Below are positions 1-5,037 of a stretch of 5,037 bases of DNA, one piece after another. Within the stretch, counting starts at the first letter, position 1. Every line of letters starts with the position of its first letter. The translations under genes were made by a program, and so were the position numbers. Under the pieces are notes generated by a model. The model ran no database searches and was not told the DNA's origin. It saw nothing but the letters and a program-made list of their open reading frames with translations. The stretch spans positions 1-5,037 of IMG/VR virus record IMGVR_UViG_2563366883_000001. The stretch is one strand, 5' to 3'. The DNA comes from a virus. Its lineage: Duplodnaviria > Heunggongvirae > Uroviricota > Caudoviricetes.

Positions 1-65
1 ACGAACGCCGGAAGGCAGCTGGTTTTATTTGAGTCTGAGAAACGATTTTGTCGGAGGAAATTTTA

Positions 66-782
66 ATGGAAACCGTATTTGACGCACTGAAAGCACTGAA
101 AAGAGCCTCTTCACAGGTAGTGGCGGCCCGCCTTGGAATCAGCCGTGAAGATGCGGTCAACGAACTGTGGAAACTGAAGCGCCGCGGTGAAGCGGATAAC
201 AAGGGTTCGATGTGGTGGCTGATTCAGGCTGGTGAAAGTGAACCGGTGTCACCGGTACCGAAAGTGACAGCGCAAATGCTGACTGAGGCGATTGAACAAC
301 ATGGCCCACAAACGGCGGATGAGCTGGCACTGATGTTCGGGATTACCTCCCGCCGGGCGAATTCATCGCTGGCCATGGCAATCAGCAAAGGGCGTCTGAT
401 TCGCGTGAATCAGGGTGGTAAATTTCGTTACTGCATACCGGGCGCTGATTTACCGGCAGAGCCGGAAGCTGCATCCGTAGCGGAAACCGATGGTAAAGCC
501 TTTCCTCAGCCAGCAGGTGTTGCGTTACCAGTACAGGAAATGATGGCACAGGAAGAAATGAAAACAGAAATCGTGGAAGACATTGTGAGGTTACAGCCAT
601 CGATCACCGAAATGAAAGCAGATGACCTGATTCTACCATCGCTGCATGTGGCTAACCGCGAGCTGCGCCGGGCGAAAAGTGATGTCCAGAAGTGGGAGCG
701 AGTCTGTGCTGCGCTGCGGGAACTGAACAAACACAGGGATATTCTCCGGGATATTACCGCCACCAGAGAGCAGCAGCGGTGA
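66..782 (+). CDS. Hypothetical phage protein with two winged-helix-like segments and a charged, coiled-coil-like C-terminus
   Basis: ORF-track frame 48..782. I place the start at ATG 66 because GGAGG at 53-57 sits 8 nt upstream; the TTG at 48 has no SD. Two similar segments (aa ~8-45 and ~76-120) each read like a small wHTH (e.g. [15 protein letters not shown] and [19 protein letters not shown]). Stop TGA 780-782 overlaps the next GTG start. Family not recognised. Confidence 0.6.
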
Positions 783-1096
783 GTGGCTGGAAGAAGTGGC
801 GCTGGGCTGAAATCCTGATACTCCGGCAGTGTGCGGGAACGATGAGAGTCGAAAGCATCGGTTATCTGATTGGTCGTAGTGAGTCAGCCGTCAGGACGAA
901 AGCGCGGGAACTGGGTATCAGCATGATTTTACGGGGTGATTTTCACCCGTCGGCAAAATATTCACAGCGTGATATTGAGCTGGCGCGGCAACTGCATCAG
1001 CGTGGCGTACCCCGACGGGAAATTGCCGAAAAGTTTGGGATGAAGTTGGGCGCAGTGAATAACTACGTTTATTTCGACAGGAGGGTTCAGGAGTGA
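779..1096 (+). CDS. Small HTH DNA-binding protein (GcrA-N-terminal-like / sigma-70 region 4-like pattern)
   Basis: GTG 779 overlaps the upstream stop (GTGA). From this start the protein begins [13 protein letters not shown]...[24 protein letters not shown], which matches the W-x-x-E...I-x-x-x-L-G-x-x-S-x-x-A-V-x-x-K-x-x-x-L-G-[LI]-S pattern I recall from GcrA-type HTH domains. ATG 842 is an alternative start but would cut off the first helix. Weak SD-like AGAGAG at 765-770. Confidence 0.5.
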
Positions 1097-1395
1097 GGGT
1101 GAGGATTTATATCGCCGGTCCGATGACGGGATATGAAAATTTCAACCGCGAGGCGTTTCACAGGGCGGAAGATGCGCTGAAACGGGAAGGGCATACCGTT
1201 TTAAACCCGGCAGTACTTCCGGACGGGCTGACTCAACCACACTACATGGATATTTGCATGGCAATGCTCCGTTGCGTGGATGCGGTTTACATGCTGAAAG
1301 GCTGGCAGCAGTCGGCAGGTGCAAGGGCTGAGCTGGCACTGGCGGAGAAACTGGGCCATGCGGTGATTTTTCAGGAGGTGGGCAGTGAATATTGA
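1093..1395 (+). CDS. DUF4406 family protein (nucleoside 2-deoxyribosyltransferase-like fold)
   Basis: 100 aa with the N-terminal motif RIYIAGPMTG typical of DUF4406 / nucleoside 2-deoxyribosyltransferase-like proteins and an acidic residue in the C-terminal AELALAEKLG segment. GTG 1093 overlaps the upstream TGA; GTG 1099 is an alternative start. Confidence 0.75.
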   Translation: MRVRIYIAGPMTGYENFNREAFHRAEDALKREGHTVLNPAVLPDGLTQPHYMDICMAMLRCVDAVYMLKGWQQSAGARAELALAEKLGHAVIFQEVGSEY

Positions 1396-1624
1396 CCCGG
1401 CGATAACGATTGATATGGCCCTGAACACCGGCCTGGCACTTCTTGGTTATTTCTACATCATGTTCTGCAGCGGACGATGGCTGTCACTGTTGTTCATGAA
1501 AAAATGGAATAAACGCCGTAAGCAGGAGCAACGCCAGAAGGCAATGGATGCATTTTCGAAGCCTTCGGAATTGACGGCATGGAACCAGGGGATCCAGCTC
1601 GCGCAATCAGCAGAGGGGGTGTAG
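1385..1624 (+). CDS. Small membrane protein (one predicted TM helix, basic C-terminal tail)
   Basis: GTG 1385 preceded by AGGAGG at 1373-1378 (6-nt spacer). Hydrophobic stretch LNTGLALLGYFYIMFCSGRWLSLLF followed by a Lys/Arg-rich segment KKWNKRRKQEQRQK. Overlaps the upstream stop by 11 nt. Confidence 0.5.
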   Translation: MNIDPAITIDMALNTGLALLGYFYIMFCSGRWLSLLFMKKWNKRRKQEQRQKAMDAFSKPSELTAWNQGIQLAQSAEGV

Positions 1625-1654
1625 TAATCCTTGTATATCGGAGTGAAGAGAAAA

Positions 1655-1969
1655 ATGACGATCACAAAACAACGAGTAGAAAAAATCATATATCGCCATG
1701 AAATGGGACTGAACAGCGATGTCACTGCCGAAGAGGTTTATGACCTGGCTGTACTGGCGCTGAATTTATCAAATATCGCAAACCTGAAGCGATACGAGCT
1801 TGATATGGATGGTTGCGACTCGTGCGGTCAGGATTGTGGCGCAGATATGACTGAAGATCCTGATGGTGATTATGTCCTGTTTGATGACGTGGTTAAGTTG
1901 TTTGAATTTGATACAACCACTCAAAAGTTAGAAATCCCGGCAAAGGAGGCAGCCAGTGAGCAAGATTGA
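1655..1969 (+). CDS. Hypothetical acidic phage protein
   Basis: ORF-track frame 1631..1969. ATG 1655 chosen as start (purine-rich GAAGAG just upstream); the TTG 1631 and GTG 1643 alternatives are not excluded. C-terminal half is Asp/Glu-rich with a CDSCGQDCG cysteine cluster. Its 3' end overlaps the next gene's GTG start. Confidence 0.55.
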   Translation: MTITKQRVEKIIYRHEMGLNSDVTAEEVYDLAVLALNLSNIANLKRYELDMDGCDSCGQDCGADMTEDPDGDYVLFDDVVKLFEFDTTTQKLEIPAKEAASEQD

Positions 1970-2504
1970 CTATCAGGCACTGCGTGAAAAGGCAGAGAAA
2001 GCAACTAAAGGAAGCTACATCGTAGGGCATACATCTGTTAACCAGCACGGCAATTTAACAGGAGTTTTTGTTTGCCAAAAATGGAAAGGAGAACCCGGTG
2101 GCGTGATTGCGGAATGTCATATTAACTGCCTGATTGAAACAGATGCTCAGGCTTATGCAAACGCTGAATTCATAGCAGAGGCTAACCCGGCTACCGTGCT
2201 GGCACTGCTGGATGAACGGGAAAGAAACCTGCAATACATCAAAAGCCGCGATCAGGAGAACGAGGATATTGCGCTAACGGTAGGGAAGCTGCGCGTTGAG
2301 CTTGAAGCAGAAAAACAGCGGGCAAAAGTTCTATTTATGGAAAATGCTCGGCTTAAGTCAGGCATAGCCGGTCTGATACACCTCGGTATTCGATATGCAG
2401 ATGTTGAGGTCATGAAAATTGCTGGAGATGCCCAGCTTTCTACCCCATGCACTGACAGCATCATAAACAGCATTGCAACAGGCATTCGCATCAAAGGAGA
2501 GTGA
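1956..2504 (+). CDS. Ead/Ea22-like family protein
   Basis: GTG 1956 with AAGGAGG at 1943-1949 (6-nt spacer). Contains the segment NAEFIAEANPATVLALLDERE plus a coiled-coil-like stretch, which I recognise as typical of Ead/Ea22-like proteins of lambdoid phage early regions. Confidence 0.8.
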   Translation: MSKIDYQALREKAEKATKGSYIVGHTSVNQHGNLTGVFVCQKWKGEPGGVIAECHINCLIETDAQAYANAEFIAEANPATVLALLDERERNLQYIKSRDQENEDIALTVGKLRVELEAEKQRAKVLFMENARLKSGIAGLIHLGIRYADVEVMKIAGDAQLSTPCTDSIINSIATGIRIKGE

Positions 2505-2505
2505 T

Positions 2506-3021
2506 ATGGCGTTAACACACCACGAACTCTGTCAGATTGCGTACAAGTTCCTTAAGCGCAACGGGTTCAAGGTTTGCTTTCATGACCGCTTTGTTGCTGT
2601 AACCAGTACCGGAGAACAGCCAGATGCTATGGGATTCAGAAATTCAGCATCATGCCTGATAGAGGCGAAGTGTTCTCGTGCTGACTTGTTGGCAGATAGA
2701 AAAAAGCGTTTCCGTAAAAATCCCTCACTTGGCATGGGCGACTGGCGATTCTTTATTAGTGAGCCGGAAATTATTTCAGTTGAGGATTTACCTCCCGGCT
2801 GGGGATTACTTCACGTTGTTAACGGAAGAGTACGGAAAGTACATGGATGGCCCAGGGGTAATTGCTGTTGGGGTAATCCTGACGATAAGCCATTTACTGG
2901 GAATAAGCAGGTTGAATGCGATTACATGTTATCTGCATTAAGGCGCATGGAGTTGAGAGGGCACCTTAATGAAATATATGACGGTGTGATTGTTAATAAG
3001 AAAGAAGGAAACGCGGCATGA
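2506..3021 (+). CDS. PD-(D/E)xK-motif putative nuclease (possibly MmcB-like)
   Basis: ATG 2506 with AAGGAG at 2494-2499; the ATG at 2473 lacks an SD. Motif GEQPDAMGF ... CLIEAKCSRADLL fits E...PD...(D/E)xK of restriction-endonuclease-fold nucleases. Stop overlaps the next ATG (ATGA). Confidence 0.7.
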   Translation: MALTHHELCQIAYKFLKRNGFKVCFHDRFVAVTSTGEQPDAMGFRNSASCLIEAKCSRADLLADRKKRFRKNPSLGMGDWRFFISEPEIISVEDLPPGWGLLHVVNGRVRKVHGWPRGNCCWGNPDDKPFTGNKQVECDYMLSALRRMELRGHLNEIYDGVIVNKKEGNAA

Positions 3022-3926
3022 TCACTATTACCAAAGGGCGACTGCTGACAATCAAGCAGTGGCGCGAAACATACGGACCGGGTAGCAACGTTGTACTGCC
3101 AGCAGAAGAAGCGGAAGAACTGGCACGAATTGCACTGGTATCGCTGGAAGCAGAGCCGGTGGCAAAGATTATAGCTCATTACCCATTAGGAGTTGACGTA
3201 GGCAAACAAAAGTTCGTACAGGCCATTGGAGAGCTTCCTGACTTTGGCGGATATCTATTTGCCGCCCCGCCAGCGCCGGTAGTGCCGGAAGAAGCAACTC
3301 CGGAAAACGTAGAAATGCTCTCTGGCTATGTTTCCACGTACAAATTAACCGATAGCGAGCGCGATATTGCTGCCGAAATATGGAACGCCTGCCGCACCGA
3401 CATGCTTCAGTCCGGAAACTTTCGGGAAAGCAAGAATTCGTCAACCAATAATTTTCGGGAAATCCCGGAAGCGTCAACCAGCTCTCCGGTAACTCCGGCT
3501 CTTCTGCCTGGTGGTTTCACCATTGAGGAGGCGAAGGAATTACATGAAGACCTGGTACGCAGCCACATAAGCAAGGCCTTAAGTGGCGAAAAGATGAAAA
3601 AGAAAGATCGCGATGCTGATTTGCGCTGGATTCATGGCGTTATAGTTCAGGCAGCGTGGTTTGTAAAAGCATCACTGGAGCAGAATGCACTATCGGGCAA
3701 CTCTCCGGTAACTCCGGATGGTTGGATAAGCTGTAGTGAGCGAATGCCGGATGATGGTCAGCACGTAATTATTTTATGTGATGGCGCATTCGTTCTTTAT
3801 GCGCAATATCGAGACGGTGAGTTTTTTGATGTAGTCCGTAATGGTGATGAATTTTTCGAAACACAGAGCCGCAATGTAACCGACTGGATGCCGTTACCAG
3901 AACCGCCGCAGGAGGTGCGCCAATGA
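3018..3926 (+). CDS. DUF551 domain-containing mosaic phage protein
   Basis: C-terminus DGWISCSERMPDDGQHVIILCDGAFVLYAQYRDGEFFD...VTDWMPLPEPP matches the DUF551 signature (W-x-S...LP...THWMPLPEPP). SD AAGGAA at 3004-3009. Contains two in-frame 17-bp direct repeats, each encoding SPVTP. Confidence 0.8.
   Translation: MITITKGRLLTIKQWRETYGPGSNVVLPAEEAEELARIALVSLEAEPVAKIIAHYPLGVDVGKQKFVQAIGELPDFGGYLFAAPPAPVVPEEATPENVEMLSGYVSTYKLTDSERDIAAEIWNACRTDMLQSGNFRESKNSSTNNFREIPEASTSSPVTPALLPGGFTIEEAKELHEDLVRSHISKALSGEKMKKKDRDADLRWIHGVIVQAAWFVKASLEQNALSGNSPVTPDGWISCSERMPDDGQHVIILCDGAFVLYAQYRDGEFFDVVRNGDEFFETQSRNVTDWMPLPEPPQEVRQ
3482..3717 (+). repeat. Pair of 17-bp direct repeats (ctctccggtaactccgg) inside the DUF551 gene
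   Basis: Exact copies at 3482-3498 and 3701-3717, in the same reading frame, each encoding SPVTP. They flank a ~200-bp segment encoding a charged, helix-like module. Confidence 0.7.
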
Positions 3927-4006
3927 TCTGGCCTGAAGCATTTGCAATTACAGGCGTTGCTATGGCTATCGCTTTTTTAGTATATGTTATTTGTCGGTGT
4001 GGGTAA
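3923..4006 (+). CDS. Predicted 27-aa hydrophobic peptide (MIWPEAFAITGVAMAIAFLVYVICRCG)
   Basis: Not in the ORF track (too short). ATG 3923 overlaps the DUF551 stop (ATGA) and is preceded by GGAGG at 3911-3915 (7-nt spacer). Hand translation gives a single hydrophobic helix, stop TAA 4004-4006. Confidence 0.35.
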   Translation: MIWPEAFAITGVAMAIAFLVYVICRCG

Positions 4007-4041
4007 AAGCGTTCGCCGGGATTAACACCAAAGGAGGGAAT

Positions 4042-4146
4042 GTGTCGGATGATATCTCACTGGCAATGGAAGGTGCGCTGGCTGTTATTGCTGTTGTGGG
4101 TGTTTACTGCCTGGTTGTGTTTTTGATGGATCGACTAGGGAACTGA
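4042..4146 (+). CDS. Predicted 34-aa hydrophobic peptide (MSDDISLAMEGALAVIAVVGVYCLVVFLMDRLGN)
   Basis: Not in the ORF track. GTG 4042 follows AAGGAGGG at 4031-4038 (spacing short, 3-4 nt). Acidic N-terminus, one TM-like helix, charged C-terminus, stop TGA 4144-4146. A 28-aa peptide in another frame (ATG 4040..4126) uses the same SD; the start is ambiguous. Confidence 0.3.
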   Translation: MSDDISLAMEGALAVIAVVGVYCLVVFLMDRLGN

Positions 4147-4154
4147 ATTCATTA

Positions 4155-4176
4155 CGATATGGGAATTCCCATATCG
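4155..4176. repeat. 22-bp perfect palindrome cgatatgggaattcccatatcg centred on GAATTC
   Basis: Every position pairs across the centre at 4165/4166. Lies between the 34-aa small ORF and the predicted hok promoter. No U-tract on either side. Confidence 0.6.
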
Positions 4177-4187
4177 GGTAAAAACGG

Positions 4188-4216
4188 TTTGCGGTAAAGC
4201 GAGAGTTAAGTAGAAT
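4188..4216 (+). promoter_or_regulatory. Putative sigma-70 promoter of the hok/mok mRNA
   Basis: -35 TTGCGG (4189-4194), 16-nt spacer, -10 TAGAAT (4211-4216, 5/6 to consensus). The predicted start site near 4222-4224 coincides with the 5' segment that is complementary to the mRNA 3' end. Confidence 0.45.
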
Positions 4217-4234
4217 TGCTGCGGGTGCTTGAGG

Positions 4235-4270
4235 CTGTCTGCCTCGGGCATGCCACCGTAAGGCAGACAG
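4235..4270 (+). promoter_or_regulatory. hok mRNA leader stem-loop
   Basis: 10-bp perfect stem ctgtctgcct (4235-4244) / aggcagacag (4261-4270) with a 16-nt loop. Lies in the predicted 5' leader upstream of mok. Confidence 0.5.
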
Positions 4271-4277
4271 AGAAAAG

Positions 4278-4343
4278 CCCCAGTTAACATTATGCGTCTT
4301 GCAGGACGCTTAACATTAATCTGAGGCCAATTTCATGCTAGCC
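4278..4343 (-). ncRNA. sok: Predicted Sok-like antisense RNA (approximate bounds)
   Basis: Inferred from the antisense promoter and from the sokC/mokC arrangement I recall. Would be complementary to the mok start codon and SD (4321-4337). The minus strand has a small hairpin (plus coordinates 4294-4309) and a U-rich stretch from plus 4270-4278. Ends not determinable from sequence alone. Confidence 0.35.
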
Positions 4344-4547
4344 ACATGTAGGTTAGCCTCTTACACGCCGAAAGGCAAGGAGAAGCAGGCTATGAAGCAG
4401 CAAAAGGCGATGTTAGTCGCCCTGATCGTCATCTGTATTACCGTCATTGTGACGGCACTGGTAACGAGGAAAGACCTCTGCGAGGTACGAATCCGAACCG
4501 GCCAGACGGAGGTCACTGTCTTCACAGCTTACGAACCTGAGGAGTAA
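4335..4547 (+). CDS. mok: Mok-like regulatory reading frame (in-frame upstream extension of hok)
   Basis: 70-aa ORF from the track, MLATCRLASYTPKGKEKQA followed by the Hok sequence. As I recall, chromosomal Mok proteins such as MokC have this in-frame extended layout. GAGG at 4323-4326 lies 8 nt upstream of ATG 4335. Confidence 0.5.
   Translation: MLATCRLASYTPKGKEKQAMKQQKAMLVALIVICITVIVTALVTRKDLCEVRIRTGQTEVTVFTAYEPEE
4350..4378 (-). promoter_or_regulatory. Putative Sok antisense promoter
   Basis: On the minus strand: -35 TTGCCT (plus coordinates 4378-4373), 17-nt spacer, -10 TAACCT (4355-4350). Placed inside the 5' part of mok, where sok promoters sit in known hok loci. Confidence 0.35.
4392..4547 (+). 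CDS. hok: Hok/Gef family type I toxin, closest to HokD (RelF)
   Basis: 51 aa, MKQQKAMLVALIVICITVIVTALVTRKDLCEVRIRTGQTEVTVFTAYEPEE. From memory this is near-identical to E. coli HokD/RelF and very similar to HokC/Gef. AAGGAG at 4376-4381 lies 10 nt upstream of ATG 4392. Confidence 0.9.
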   Translation: MKQQKAMLVALIVICITVIVTALVTRKDLCEVRIRTGQTEVTVFTAYEPEE

Positions 4548-4615
4548 GAGACCTGGCGGGGGAGAAATCCCTCGCCACCTCTGATGAGTCAGGCATCCTC
4601 AACGCACCCGCACTT

Positions 4616-4642
4616 AACCCGCTTCGGCGGGTTTTGTTTTTT
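4616..4642 (+). terminator. Rho-independent terminator of the hok mRNA
   Basis: Stem aacccgc (4616-4622) / gcgggtt (4627-4633) with UUCG tetraloop (4623-4626), followed by the T-rich run ttttgtttttt through 4642. Confidence 0.8.
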
Positions 4643-4663
4643 CCTGGCATTCTGGTTTACAAT
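4634..4663 (+). promoter_or_regulatory. Possible sigma-70 promoter for the downstream gene
   Basis: -35 TTGTTT (4634-4639), 18-nt spacer, -10 TACAAT (4658-4663). Overlaps the terminator T-tract; weak evidence. Confidence 0.25.
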
Positions 4664-4714
4664 TCGCACGCCAGCCTGAACAACTGGCACCTGCTGCGCC
4701 AGCAGAGACAACCG

Positions 4715-4993
4715 ATGGCGCACGATACCAAATTATACAATTCTGATAATTCAGCCGTCTTTGCCAGCAGGCACGGGCGGCGTTCTCATGCATTCAAATC
4801 TGACAGGTTACAGCACGCCCCATGCACTGAAGAACAGGCCGAATGGCTGATTCAGAACTACCGCAGACGTGGGTATGAGTTTAGGAAAACCCTCAGCCTC
4901 GATTATCGTCACTGGATAATCTCCGTCAGGCTTCCTTACTCTGAACGCCCACCGCGTCCGTCCCGCACATTCCTGCAACGCATCTGGAGGTAA
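4715..4993 (+). CDS. Hypothetical basic protein (92 aa)
   Basis: ORF-track frame 4634..4993. The TTG at 4634 lies inside the terminator T-tract, so I take the first ATG at 4715 as start. Arg-rich, no motif recognised. Sits immediately downstream of hok in the same orientation, as rem does relative to hokD in the K-12 Qin prophage, but I cannot confirm homology. Confidence 0.4.
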   Translation: MAHDTKLYNSDNSAVFASRHGRRSHAFKSDRLQHAPCTEEQAEWLIQNYRRRGYEFRKTLSLDYRHWIISVRLPYSERPPRPSRTFLQRIWR

Positions 4994-4994
4994 C

Positions 4995-5037
4995 GTGCGG
5001 GTATTACTTCGACCTGTTCTGGTACCGGAACTCGGGC
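4995..5037 (+). CDS. 5' fragment of a further ORF running off the window end
   Basis: GTG 4995 preceded by GGAGG at 4986-4990 (4-nt spacer); open to the end of the window (VRVLLRPVLVPELG...). Only 14 codons visible. Confidence 0.25.
   Translation, partial: MRVLLRPVLVPELG

Follow-up and report, generated by a model that had tools for sequence, protein, structure and literature searches.

The described enzymes closest to the gene considered here are the following. The cellular enzyme DNPH1/Rcl (8qhq, 8qhr, 4fyh, 2khz) is a 2'-deoxynucleoside 5'-phosphate N-hydrolase, while MilB, BlsM and BcmB (4jel, 4ohr, 5vto, 4jen) are cytidine 5'-monophosphate (CMP) and hydroxymethyl-CMP N-glycosidases of antibiotic biosynthesis. 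Both belong with the class I and II nucleoside 2'-deoxyribosyltransferases (NDTs; PF05014; 2a0k, 6qai, 6evs, 1f8x) in terms of fold. In phages, DmtZ (from the Gordonia phage Ghobes and from Wayne, a phage of Arthrobacter) has been shown biochemically to convert deoxyadenosine monophosphate (dAMP) into adenine and deoxyribose-5-phosphate (dR5P), and to transfer dR5P to 2-aminoadenine (PMC12884076). DmtZ has the NDT fold, is about 145 residues long and occurs either fused to a Dut-like dATP/dGTP pyrophosphohydrolase or next to one; its activity is abolished by the substitutions Y6A and E103A (PMC12884076). Here we consider an open reading frame (ORF) at positions 1093–1395 of a 5,037-nucleotide stretch of tailed-phage DNA (IMG/VR record IMGVR_UViG_2563366883_000001, positions 1 to 5,037, hereafter the window), which encodes a DUF4406 protein, and we argue that this protein is probably a minimal relative of these enzymes that acts on deoxynucleotides.

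The gene is real and intact. It reads on the plus strand from a GTG start to a TGA stop that lies within the end coordinate, and codes for 100 residues. The ratio pN/pS is about 0.15 (53 distinct alleles from 80 viral contigs), which indicates purifying selection. The window is identical (100%) to stretches of the E. coli chromosomes JE86-ST05, JE86-ST02, UCPROB-001 and UCPROB-002, and RefSeq annotates WP_001545907.1, a 'DUF4406 domain-containing protein', at the same coordinates in these four chromosomes. Residues 4–93 match positions 2–91 of the 91-position Pfam profile DUF4406 (PF14359) with an E-value of 2.3e-36; the score is 124.5 bits, where the cut-off is 22. PHROG 355, 'nucleoside 2-deoxyribosyltransferase', is matched at E 4.7e-48. 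Both signature motifs of DUF4406 are present: IYIAGPMTG at residues 5–13, where the family is conserved best, and GWQQSAGARAE at residues 70–80, which is the C-terminal GW-x-x-S-x-G-A-x-x-E motif. A sequence search of the PDB with the single protein returns only 1t1j (E 1.4), and a scan against NCBIfam returns no match. The features on which the argument rests are these:

1093–1395, plus strand: DUF4406 gene, predicted to encode a minimal N-glycosidase of the NDT/DNPH1 fold (ORF, PF14359, PHROG 355, WP_001545907.1, AlphaFold2 model, fold matches)
1105–1131, plus strand: codons of I5–G13 (IYIAGPMTG), strand 1 and the loop that follows it (conservation, hhalign)
1243–1257, plus strand: codons of Y51-M-D-I-C55, in helix 2 (hhalign, hidden Markov model (HMM) alignment, spacing rule, residue counts)
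1312–1332, plus strand: codons of S74-A-G-A-R-A-E80, the predicted S-x-G-A-x-x-E catalytic motif (conservation, alignments)

The AlphaFold2 model, calculated from an alignment of 58 diverse DUF4406 members, has a predicted local distance difference test score (pLDDT) of 94.7 and a predicted template modelling score (pTM) of 0.86. It is a Rossmann-like alpha/beta fold, as in the NDT/DNPH1 superfamily, in the order strand-helix-strand-helix-strand-helix-strand, with strands at residues 4–8, 35–37, 64–67 and 90–93. Compared with the PDB by Foldseek, it matches the NDTs of Trypanosoma brucei, of Leishmania and of bacteria, human DNPH1 (including the glycosyl-enzyme intermediate 8qhr), rat Rcl, MilB and BcmB, with template modelling (TM) scores of 0.70–0.77 on the query; the best matches are NDTs (E 6.5e-5, TM 0.74). 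The profile also matches the T. brucei NDT (TbNDT) over residues 3–95 with an E-value of 1.6e-4. With 100 residues against 125–190, the protein is shorter than every solved relative: it ends seven residues past strand 4 and thus has no counterpart of the C-terminal third of the classical fold, with its last strand and helices. The original prediction, which was made from the DNA sequence, had read at 1093–1395 a DUF4406 gene with an IYIAGPMTG motif and an NDT-like fold in a phage accessory operon; it is borne out by the ORF coordinates and the position of the motif, by the full-length PF14359 match, by the structural matches to NDTs and DNPH1/Rcl, and by the prophage gene order described below.

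Conservation in the putative active site was counted in 148 representatives, drawn from clusters at 50% identity and comprising the best 147 hits, all of which share 44% identity or more with the query. In the second motif, S74, G76, A77 and E80 are invariant or nearly so. E80 is a Glu in 137 of the 139 representatives that have no gap there; it aligns with the catalytic Glu of TbNDT, MilB, BlsM and BcmB in profile alignments and with E104 of DNPH1 in hhalign, and it stands at the beginning of the helix that follows the third core strand, where the superfamily has its catalytic Glu. It is therefore predicted from the alignments to be the covalent nucleophile. S74 corresponds to the Ser of the SPGTHxE motif of MilB, BlsM and BcmB and to S98 of DNPH1, six residues before the nucleophile as in DNPH1-type enzymes, whereas TbNDT (DCGTAFE) has an Asp at this position. 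By analogy with these related enzymes, from whose literature the phosphate-binding role is taken, S74 is predicted to be a residue of the phosphate-binding type.

In the first motif, Y6, a Tyr in 123 representatives and a Phe in 19, is aligned by hhalign with Y24 of DNPH1 and stands at the end of strand 1, where the superfamily carries a Tyr or Phe. A Tyr at this position excludes the 2'-OH, as indicated by a Phe-to-Tyr change in MilB (Sikowitz 2013, as cited in PMC12884076). The loop that follows, G9-P10-M11-T12-G13, is predicted to bind the 5'-phosphate or the ribose (G9 is conserved in 143 representatives, P10 in 131, T or S at position 12 in 136, and G13 in 137). N18, R19, F22, N38-P39-A40, P43, G45-L46 and W71 are also highly conserved. 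Among them, P39 (144/148) aligns with a Pro of TbNDT which is described as conserved in all known transferases and as excluding water (PMC12884076). The predicted site combines a hydrolase-type Ser with a transferase-type Pro, as that of DmtZ does.

We propose, with moderate confidence, that the DUF4406 protein is a 2'-deoxynucleoside 5'-monophosphate (dNMP) N-glycosidase, possibly also a deoxyribose-5-phosphate transferase, which acts on nucleotide pools in the early phase. In this mechanism E80 would attack C1' of the dNMP, the base would leave, and a covalent deoxyribosyl-5-phosphate-enzyme intermediate would be formed. Water, or possibly another base, would then resolve the intermediate; with a base as the acceptor, the protein would be a phosphodeoxyribosyltransferase like DmtZ. 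The 5'-phosphate would be held by S74 and by the G9–G13 loop, Y6 would orient E80 and exclude ribonucleotides, and the invariant Y51, which lies on the same face of the helix, may stand in for the Asp that is missing at C55. Apparently transcribed with the delayed-early rightward operon, the gene would allow the deoxynucleotide pool to be reshaped or cleaned during phage replication.

We infer the chemistry, the two specificities and the biological benefit: the preference for deoxynucleotides would follow from Tyr6, and that for a 5'-phosphate from Ser74 and from the fusion partners of the domain in other phages. That the protein could alter nucleotide pools, as the original prediction had suggested, receives support of an indirect kind, from the conserved nucleophile Glu and phosphate-type Ser and from the fusion or adjacency to deoxynucleoside triphosphate (dNTP) pyrophosphohydrolases in mycobacteriophages.

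Another candidate is a true nucleoside 2'-deoxyribosyltransferase, which would swap bases between deoxynucleosides for salvage. The name of PHROG 355 and many phage annotations say so, the top structural matches are transferases, P39 is the Pro of the transferases, and an environmental phage NDT of the PF05014 family is a purine deoxyribosyltransferase (bioRxiv 2025.10.22.683976). We nevertheless consider this function unlikely here. The protein scores only 14.7 bits against PF05014 (Nuc_deoxyrib_tr), under the cut-off of 28.8, and six residues before the nucleophile it has the invariant Ser of the nucleotide hydrolases instead of an Asp. The C-terminal part which binds the 5'-OH and the base in NDTs is missing, and the enzymes to which the domain is fused elsewhere yield dNMPs rather than nucleosides.

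The most telling contexts are those of mycobacteriophages, where these fusions are found. In Yeet, gp156 (248 residues) consists of a DUF4406 domain (E 8.4e-22) fused to an all-alpha NTP pyrophosphohydrolase (PRA-PH, above the cut-off), and the next gene carries a dATP/dGTP diphosphohydrolase domain (PF18909). In Ariel, the same three functions are encoded by separate nearby genes, gp162, gp164 (which matches PRA-PH weakly, slightly under the cut-off) and gp166, and in Nebkiss a MazG gene (PF03819, E 2.7e-7) directly follows the DUF4406 gene. Direct fusions are also suggested by models of the BFVD database whose names read 'dATP/dGTP diphosphohydrolase N-terminal domain-containing protein' and which are 34–42% identical to the DUF4406 model; the names are the basis of this suggestion. 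In other phages, DUF4406 adjoins an RNase H-like gene and DUF968 (Vibrio phage Strym), comes after a DNA polymerase processivity factor, with a gene annotated as 'pyrophosphatase' that has no Pfam match four genes on (Gordonia phage GTE7), or comes immediately after an exonuclease gene and three genes downstream of a dNMP kinase (Arthrobacter phage Tweety19); the same exonuclease neighbour is found in four other Arthrobacter phages in the tblastn table. In these other phages, the modules that contain DUF4406 serve replication, recombination or nucleotides. It is repeatedly linked to enzymes whose products are dNMPs, made from dNTPs or from DNA, which fits a dNMP as the substrate. Pfam scans of the long DUF4406-containing representatives revealed no recurrent enzymatic partner, and the contigs that encode the distant representatives, 1–2 kb in length, offer no informative neighbours. 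Among these long representatives, P0157 (162 residues) has DUF4406 joined directly to DUF551 (E 9.4e-11); this small domain is also encoded three genes downstream in the window. In P0247, DUF4406 is joined to a helix-turn-helix (HTH) domain of the HTH_19/HTH_3 type.

The DUF4406 genes of actinobacteriophages bear inconsistent names: 'MazG-like pyrophosphatase', 'deoxycytidylate deaminase', 'hydrolase' and 'nucleoside deoxyribosyltransferase'. The genes concerned are Yeet gp156 (L095, 2480–3223), Ariel gp162 (L002, 2974–3351), which is DUF4406 alone by Pfam, Nebkiss gp126 (L003, 3010–3297) and Tweety19 gp28 (L089, 3004–3372). The 'dCMP deaminase' labels look like misannotations.

Several points weigh against an N-glycosidase of this kind. 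The first is the third member of the catalytic triad, an Asp or Asn in the NDT/DNPH1 superfamily, in place of which the protein has C55. This residue is aligned with D80 of DNPH1 by hhalign and with the Asn of TbNDT in the HMM alignment, and it is also designated by a spacing rule, which puts the catalytic Asp or Asn eight positions ahead of the Asp that comes before the next strand (D63 in this protein). The column contains 98 Cys, 20 Asp, 8 Ala, 8 Thr and 6 Gly. The neighbouring D53 is an Asp in only 69 of the 148 representatives; Y51, one helical turn before C55, is kept in 143, which makes it a candidate that may substitute for the missing Asp. Moreover, the residues were mapped from low-probability sequence-profile alignments and the spacing rule, and not from an inspected superposition: the hhalign comparison with DNPH1 has an E-value of 0.012 and was made in forced global mode, and the sequence of the Lactobacillus leichmannii NDT gave no meaningful alignment and was used for the spacing rule only.

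The second point is the truncation. In Rcl/DNPH1, the partner subunit contributes a second phosphate-binding Ser, which belongs to the segment past strand 4. The DUF4406 protein stops at residue 100 and has no equivalent segment; it therefore lacks the C-terminal stretch which, in DNPH1/Rcl and in the NDTs, feeds residues into the active site of the neighbouring subunit, so that its activity and substrate could differ from those of the model enzymes. Third, the linkage to pyrophosphohydrolases is seen in actinophages only, and there is no nucleotide-metabolism gene next to DUF4406 in its 80 closest relatives. Last, it is not evident why a lambdoid phage whose DNA is ordinary should need to destroy dNMPs, and the literature searches yielded three incidental mentions of DUF4406 and none of PF14359; we found no paper in which a member of the family was assayed.

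The same substitution of the Asp by C55, at a position that tolerates Ala, Gly and Thr, together with the truncated fold, could also be explained if the protein were a non-catalytic nucleotide binder, a sponge or a sensor that has kept the fold without the chemistry; inactive versions of the TIR, SLOG and DrHyd domains are indeed known as sensors (PMC9503650). We regard this as quite improbable, since it is difficult to see why so large a family should keep the nucleophile Glu and the S-x-G-A motif invariant if it were not catalytic, and the fusion to catalytic pyrophosphohydrolases suggests a step in a pathway.

The immunity of the host offers a further possibility, namely that the protein is a counter-defence enzyme which cleaves a ribose-based immune nucleotide (a cyclic oligonucleotide, an isomer of cyclic ADP-ribose or histidine-ADP-ribose) or nicotinamide adenine dinucleotide (NAD+). 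We find this improbable. Y6 is a Tyr in 123 of the 148 representatives and, according to PMC12884076, a Tyr at this position of the superfamily selects for deoxy substrates, so that ribose-based signals are disfavoured; what the S-x-G-x-x-x-E motif suits is a free 5'-monophosphate. PADLOC matches no family to the DUF4406 protein at E-values up to 0.1, there are no known anti-defence genes alongside it in the contexts examined, and no literature was found in favour of this idea. The protein does not look like an NDT-like effector of a defence system either (of the retron Ec86/Sen2 type, or others in PADLOC): its neighbours are phage replication and accessory genes. Finally, a survey of viral NAD and ADP-ribose enzymes published in 2022 did not count the DUF4406 family among the NAD-acting viral domains (PMC9503650). 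Of the DrHyd (deoxyribohydrolase/NDT) superfamily, according to the same survey, only ADP-ribosyl-cyclase versions occur in viruses, a statement that contrasts with the presence of the DUF4406 branch in 625 phage genomes by tblastn; it may be that the survey left out enzymes that do not act on NAD.

A link between a dNMP-cleaving enzyme and immunity can be imagined in another manner. The Kongming system makes its messenger, deoxyinosine triphosphate (dITP), from dAMP and is countered by the dNMP phosphatase Dmp of phage T5, and the filament of the PUA-Calcineurin-HAD system is triggered by methylated dAMP (m6-dAMP). Phage enzymes that destroy dNMPs can serve to build modified genomes, as in the case of DmtZ, or to blunt immunity, as in the case of T5 Dmp against Kongming. 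DUF4406 could then be a widespread class of phage counter-defence proteins which remove the dNMPs that immunity employs as starting compounds or as alarm signals (such as dAMP for the dITP of Kongming, or m6-dAMP) by means of an unusually small NDT fold in which the catalytic Asp has been replaced. The class of substrate would fit, and the gene, which is early and accessory, abounds in temperate phages; nothing supports the idea specifically, and we hold it to be unlikely. In the papers on Kongming and PUA-Calcineurin-HAD, the NDT/DNPH1 fold is not involved on the phage side. We considered whether the dAMP-depleting phage enzymes of the Kongming study could be NDT-like, and rejected this, for they are HAD-type phosphatases (T5 Dmp); the enzymes of the paper on phages with dU-containing DNA are likewise phosphatases and not glycosidases. 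What probability remains after the N-glycosidase and its alternatives belongs to substrates that we have not thought of.

The UCPROB-002 copy of the stretch is part of a lambdoid prophage beside yccA; this prophage has an early region of the DicA/Rac type and a complete late region. The order of the genes is: DnaT-like replication protein, replication protein P, DUF1627, small HTH protein, DUF4406, DUF4752, hypothetical protein, Ea22-like protein, hypothetical protein, DUF551, hokD/sok, DUF968, RusA and Q. DUF4406 is therefore found between the replication gene P and the antiterminator gene Q. Consensus scans of the window detect promoter-like and terminator-like sites in no excess over shuffled sequence. 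In the intergenic gaps between 48 and 3926 they show no terminator-like site, and a good terminator is first met at 4616–4633, after hok, so that DUF4406 looks like one cistron of a delayed-early rightward operon. The immediate surroundings of the gene are as follows:

779–1096, plus strand: upstream gene for a small HTH protein (weak HTH_7 and Sigma70_r4_2 matches, PHROG 323)
1079–1096, plus strand: ribosome-binding site AGGAGGG at 1079–1085, 7 nucleotides before the GTG, and GTGA overlap at 1093–1096 (read from the sequence)
1385–1624, plus strand: downstream DUF4752 ORF, truncated (PF15944, profile positions 1–63 of 84; frameshifted in RefSeq, with its start at 1415)

The stop codon of the upstream ORF and the start codon of DUF4406 share the GTGA at 1093–1096, which suggests that the translation of the two genes is coupled. 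The start of the upstream gene is itself ambiguous: the longest ORF begins with a GTG at 692 and overlaps the end of DUF1627 by 91 nucleotides, while RefSeq places the start at 779, with an overlap of 4 nucleotides with the DUF1627 stop.

Neither neighbour is a fixed partner. The 80 closest relatives used for the clustering of neighbours (84–99% identical, on lambdoid prophage contigs) have no conserved partner gene: the upstream neighbour is the HTH protein in 27 of them and an unrelated protein in 51, and the downstream neighbour is Ea22-like in 52, DUF4752 in 5, and various proteins in the others. The DUF4406 gene behaves as an independent mosaic module without an obligate partner.

Concerning the rest of the window, RefSeq flags several neighbours of the intact DUF4406 gene as decayed (L001, 21415–23926): DUF4752 is frameshifted, the Ea22-like gene is partial and DUF551 is split into two partial pseudogenes. 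In the window, positions 3018–3926 form one uninterrupted ORF of 302 residues with DUF551 at its C-terminus, and positions 1956–2504 an Ea22-like ORF of 182 residues; the pseudogene calls may be artefacts of a mosaic domain architecture. The YdaW-like DUF1627 protein (48–782, plus strand) has weak matches to winged-helix and AlkZ-like DNA glycosylase families (E 2.7e-4, below the cut-off) and to PHROGs of Ren-like exclusion proteins (E about 3e-5). A conserved phage protein is encoded at 2473–3021 (plus strand, likely start ATG 2506); it matches PHROG 9263 (E 3.9e-121) and PHROG 631, and no Pfam, NCBIfam or PDB sequence. It contains the sequence ...QPDAMGF...CLIEAKCS..., which resembles the motif of PD-(D/E)xK nucleases, and weakly matches PHROG 5429, 'DNA repair protein' (E 0.005); RefSeq has only a frameshifted fragment at this place. 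Last, a complete hok/mok/sok type I toxin-antitoxin module occupies 4223–4547 (plus strand), with sok at 4223–4397 (Rfam, 117 bits), a mok-type ORF at 4335–4547, hok (Pfam HOK_GEF, E 2.9e-22; hokD at 4392–4547 in RefSeq) and, beyond it, the strong intrinsic terminator mentioned above.

The family is very large. A HMMER search of 1.84 billion cluster representatives yields 12,366 clusters at 50% identity with E ≤ 1e-3, and 1,837 with E ≤ 1e-10. By tblastn, the domain is found in 625 of 50,697 phage records, mostly from phages of Arthrobacter, Vibrio, Gordonia, Mycobacterium and Pseudomonas. At the DNA level, homologues are carried by 1,321 of 5,426 complete E. coli genomes (24%), with up to 4 copies per genome; the gene is present in 366 plasmid records as well, 355 of which are of non-mobilizable plasmids, and many of these plasmids are about 45–95 kb long and are presumed to be phage-plasmids, from their size and by analogy with phage D6. 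Related loci were searched with the pattern [VI][YF]I[AS]GP[MI][TS]G, which was chosen automatically.

This is a very common prophage gene, and its family and fold assignment are already catalogued in RefSeq, Pfam and PHROGs, so that the present analysis has little weight as a discovery; it is rather a pointer to a very large family whose active site departs from the textbook triad. A function for this protein of 100 residues could cover thousands of phage genes and correct such frequent misannotations as 'dCMP deaminase', 'MazG-like pyrophosphatase' and 'nucleoside deoxyribosyltransferase'.

How does the proposed enzyme compare with those that have been described? DNPH1 has 174 residues, Asp80 where the DUF4406 protein has Cys55, and a whole region after strand 4 that the phage protein lacks; one is cellular, the other comes from a phage, and the similarity of the sequences is marginal. 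MilB, BlsM and BcmB, with 160–190 residues, are specific for ribonucleotides and carry a Phe where the DUF4406 protein has a Tyr (Sikowitz 2013, as cited in PMC12884076). The class I and II NDTs share three residues with DUF4406, namely the nucleophilic Glu, the Tyr and, in the loop of strand 2, the Pro; they differ by the Asp six residues before the Glu, in place of a Ser, and by their C-terminal region, and the predicted substrate of DUF4406 is a nucleotide and not a nucleoside. DUF1937 (P. aeruginosa PA1492, PDB 1t1j; 125 residues), an uncharacterised protein from structural genomics, belongs to a separate Pfam family and adds nothing regarding the mechanism.

DmtZ, like the DUF4406 protein, is a phage protein of the NDT fold with a Tyr6, a Glu nucleophile, a third residue that is not an Asp (Asn77) and a transferase-type Pro, and its fusion or adjacency to a dNTP pyrophosphohydrolase is what is seen for DUF4406 in Yeet and Ariel. 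In contrast, DmtZ is five-stranded, with its 145 or so residues, and serves genomes that contain 2-aminoadenine, while the DUF4406 protein is four-stranded and has 100. For the N-terminal, NDT-like domain of the Wayne protein, the authors reported that sequence databases contain nothing similar, and since Pfam had no model they constructed an HMM themselves (PMC12884076). On account of this reported lack of similarity, we treat DmtZ as a sister case of DUF4406, and not as a member of the same family.

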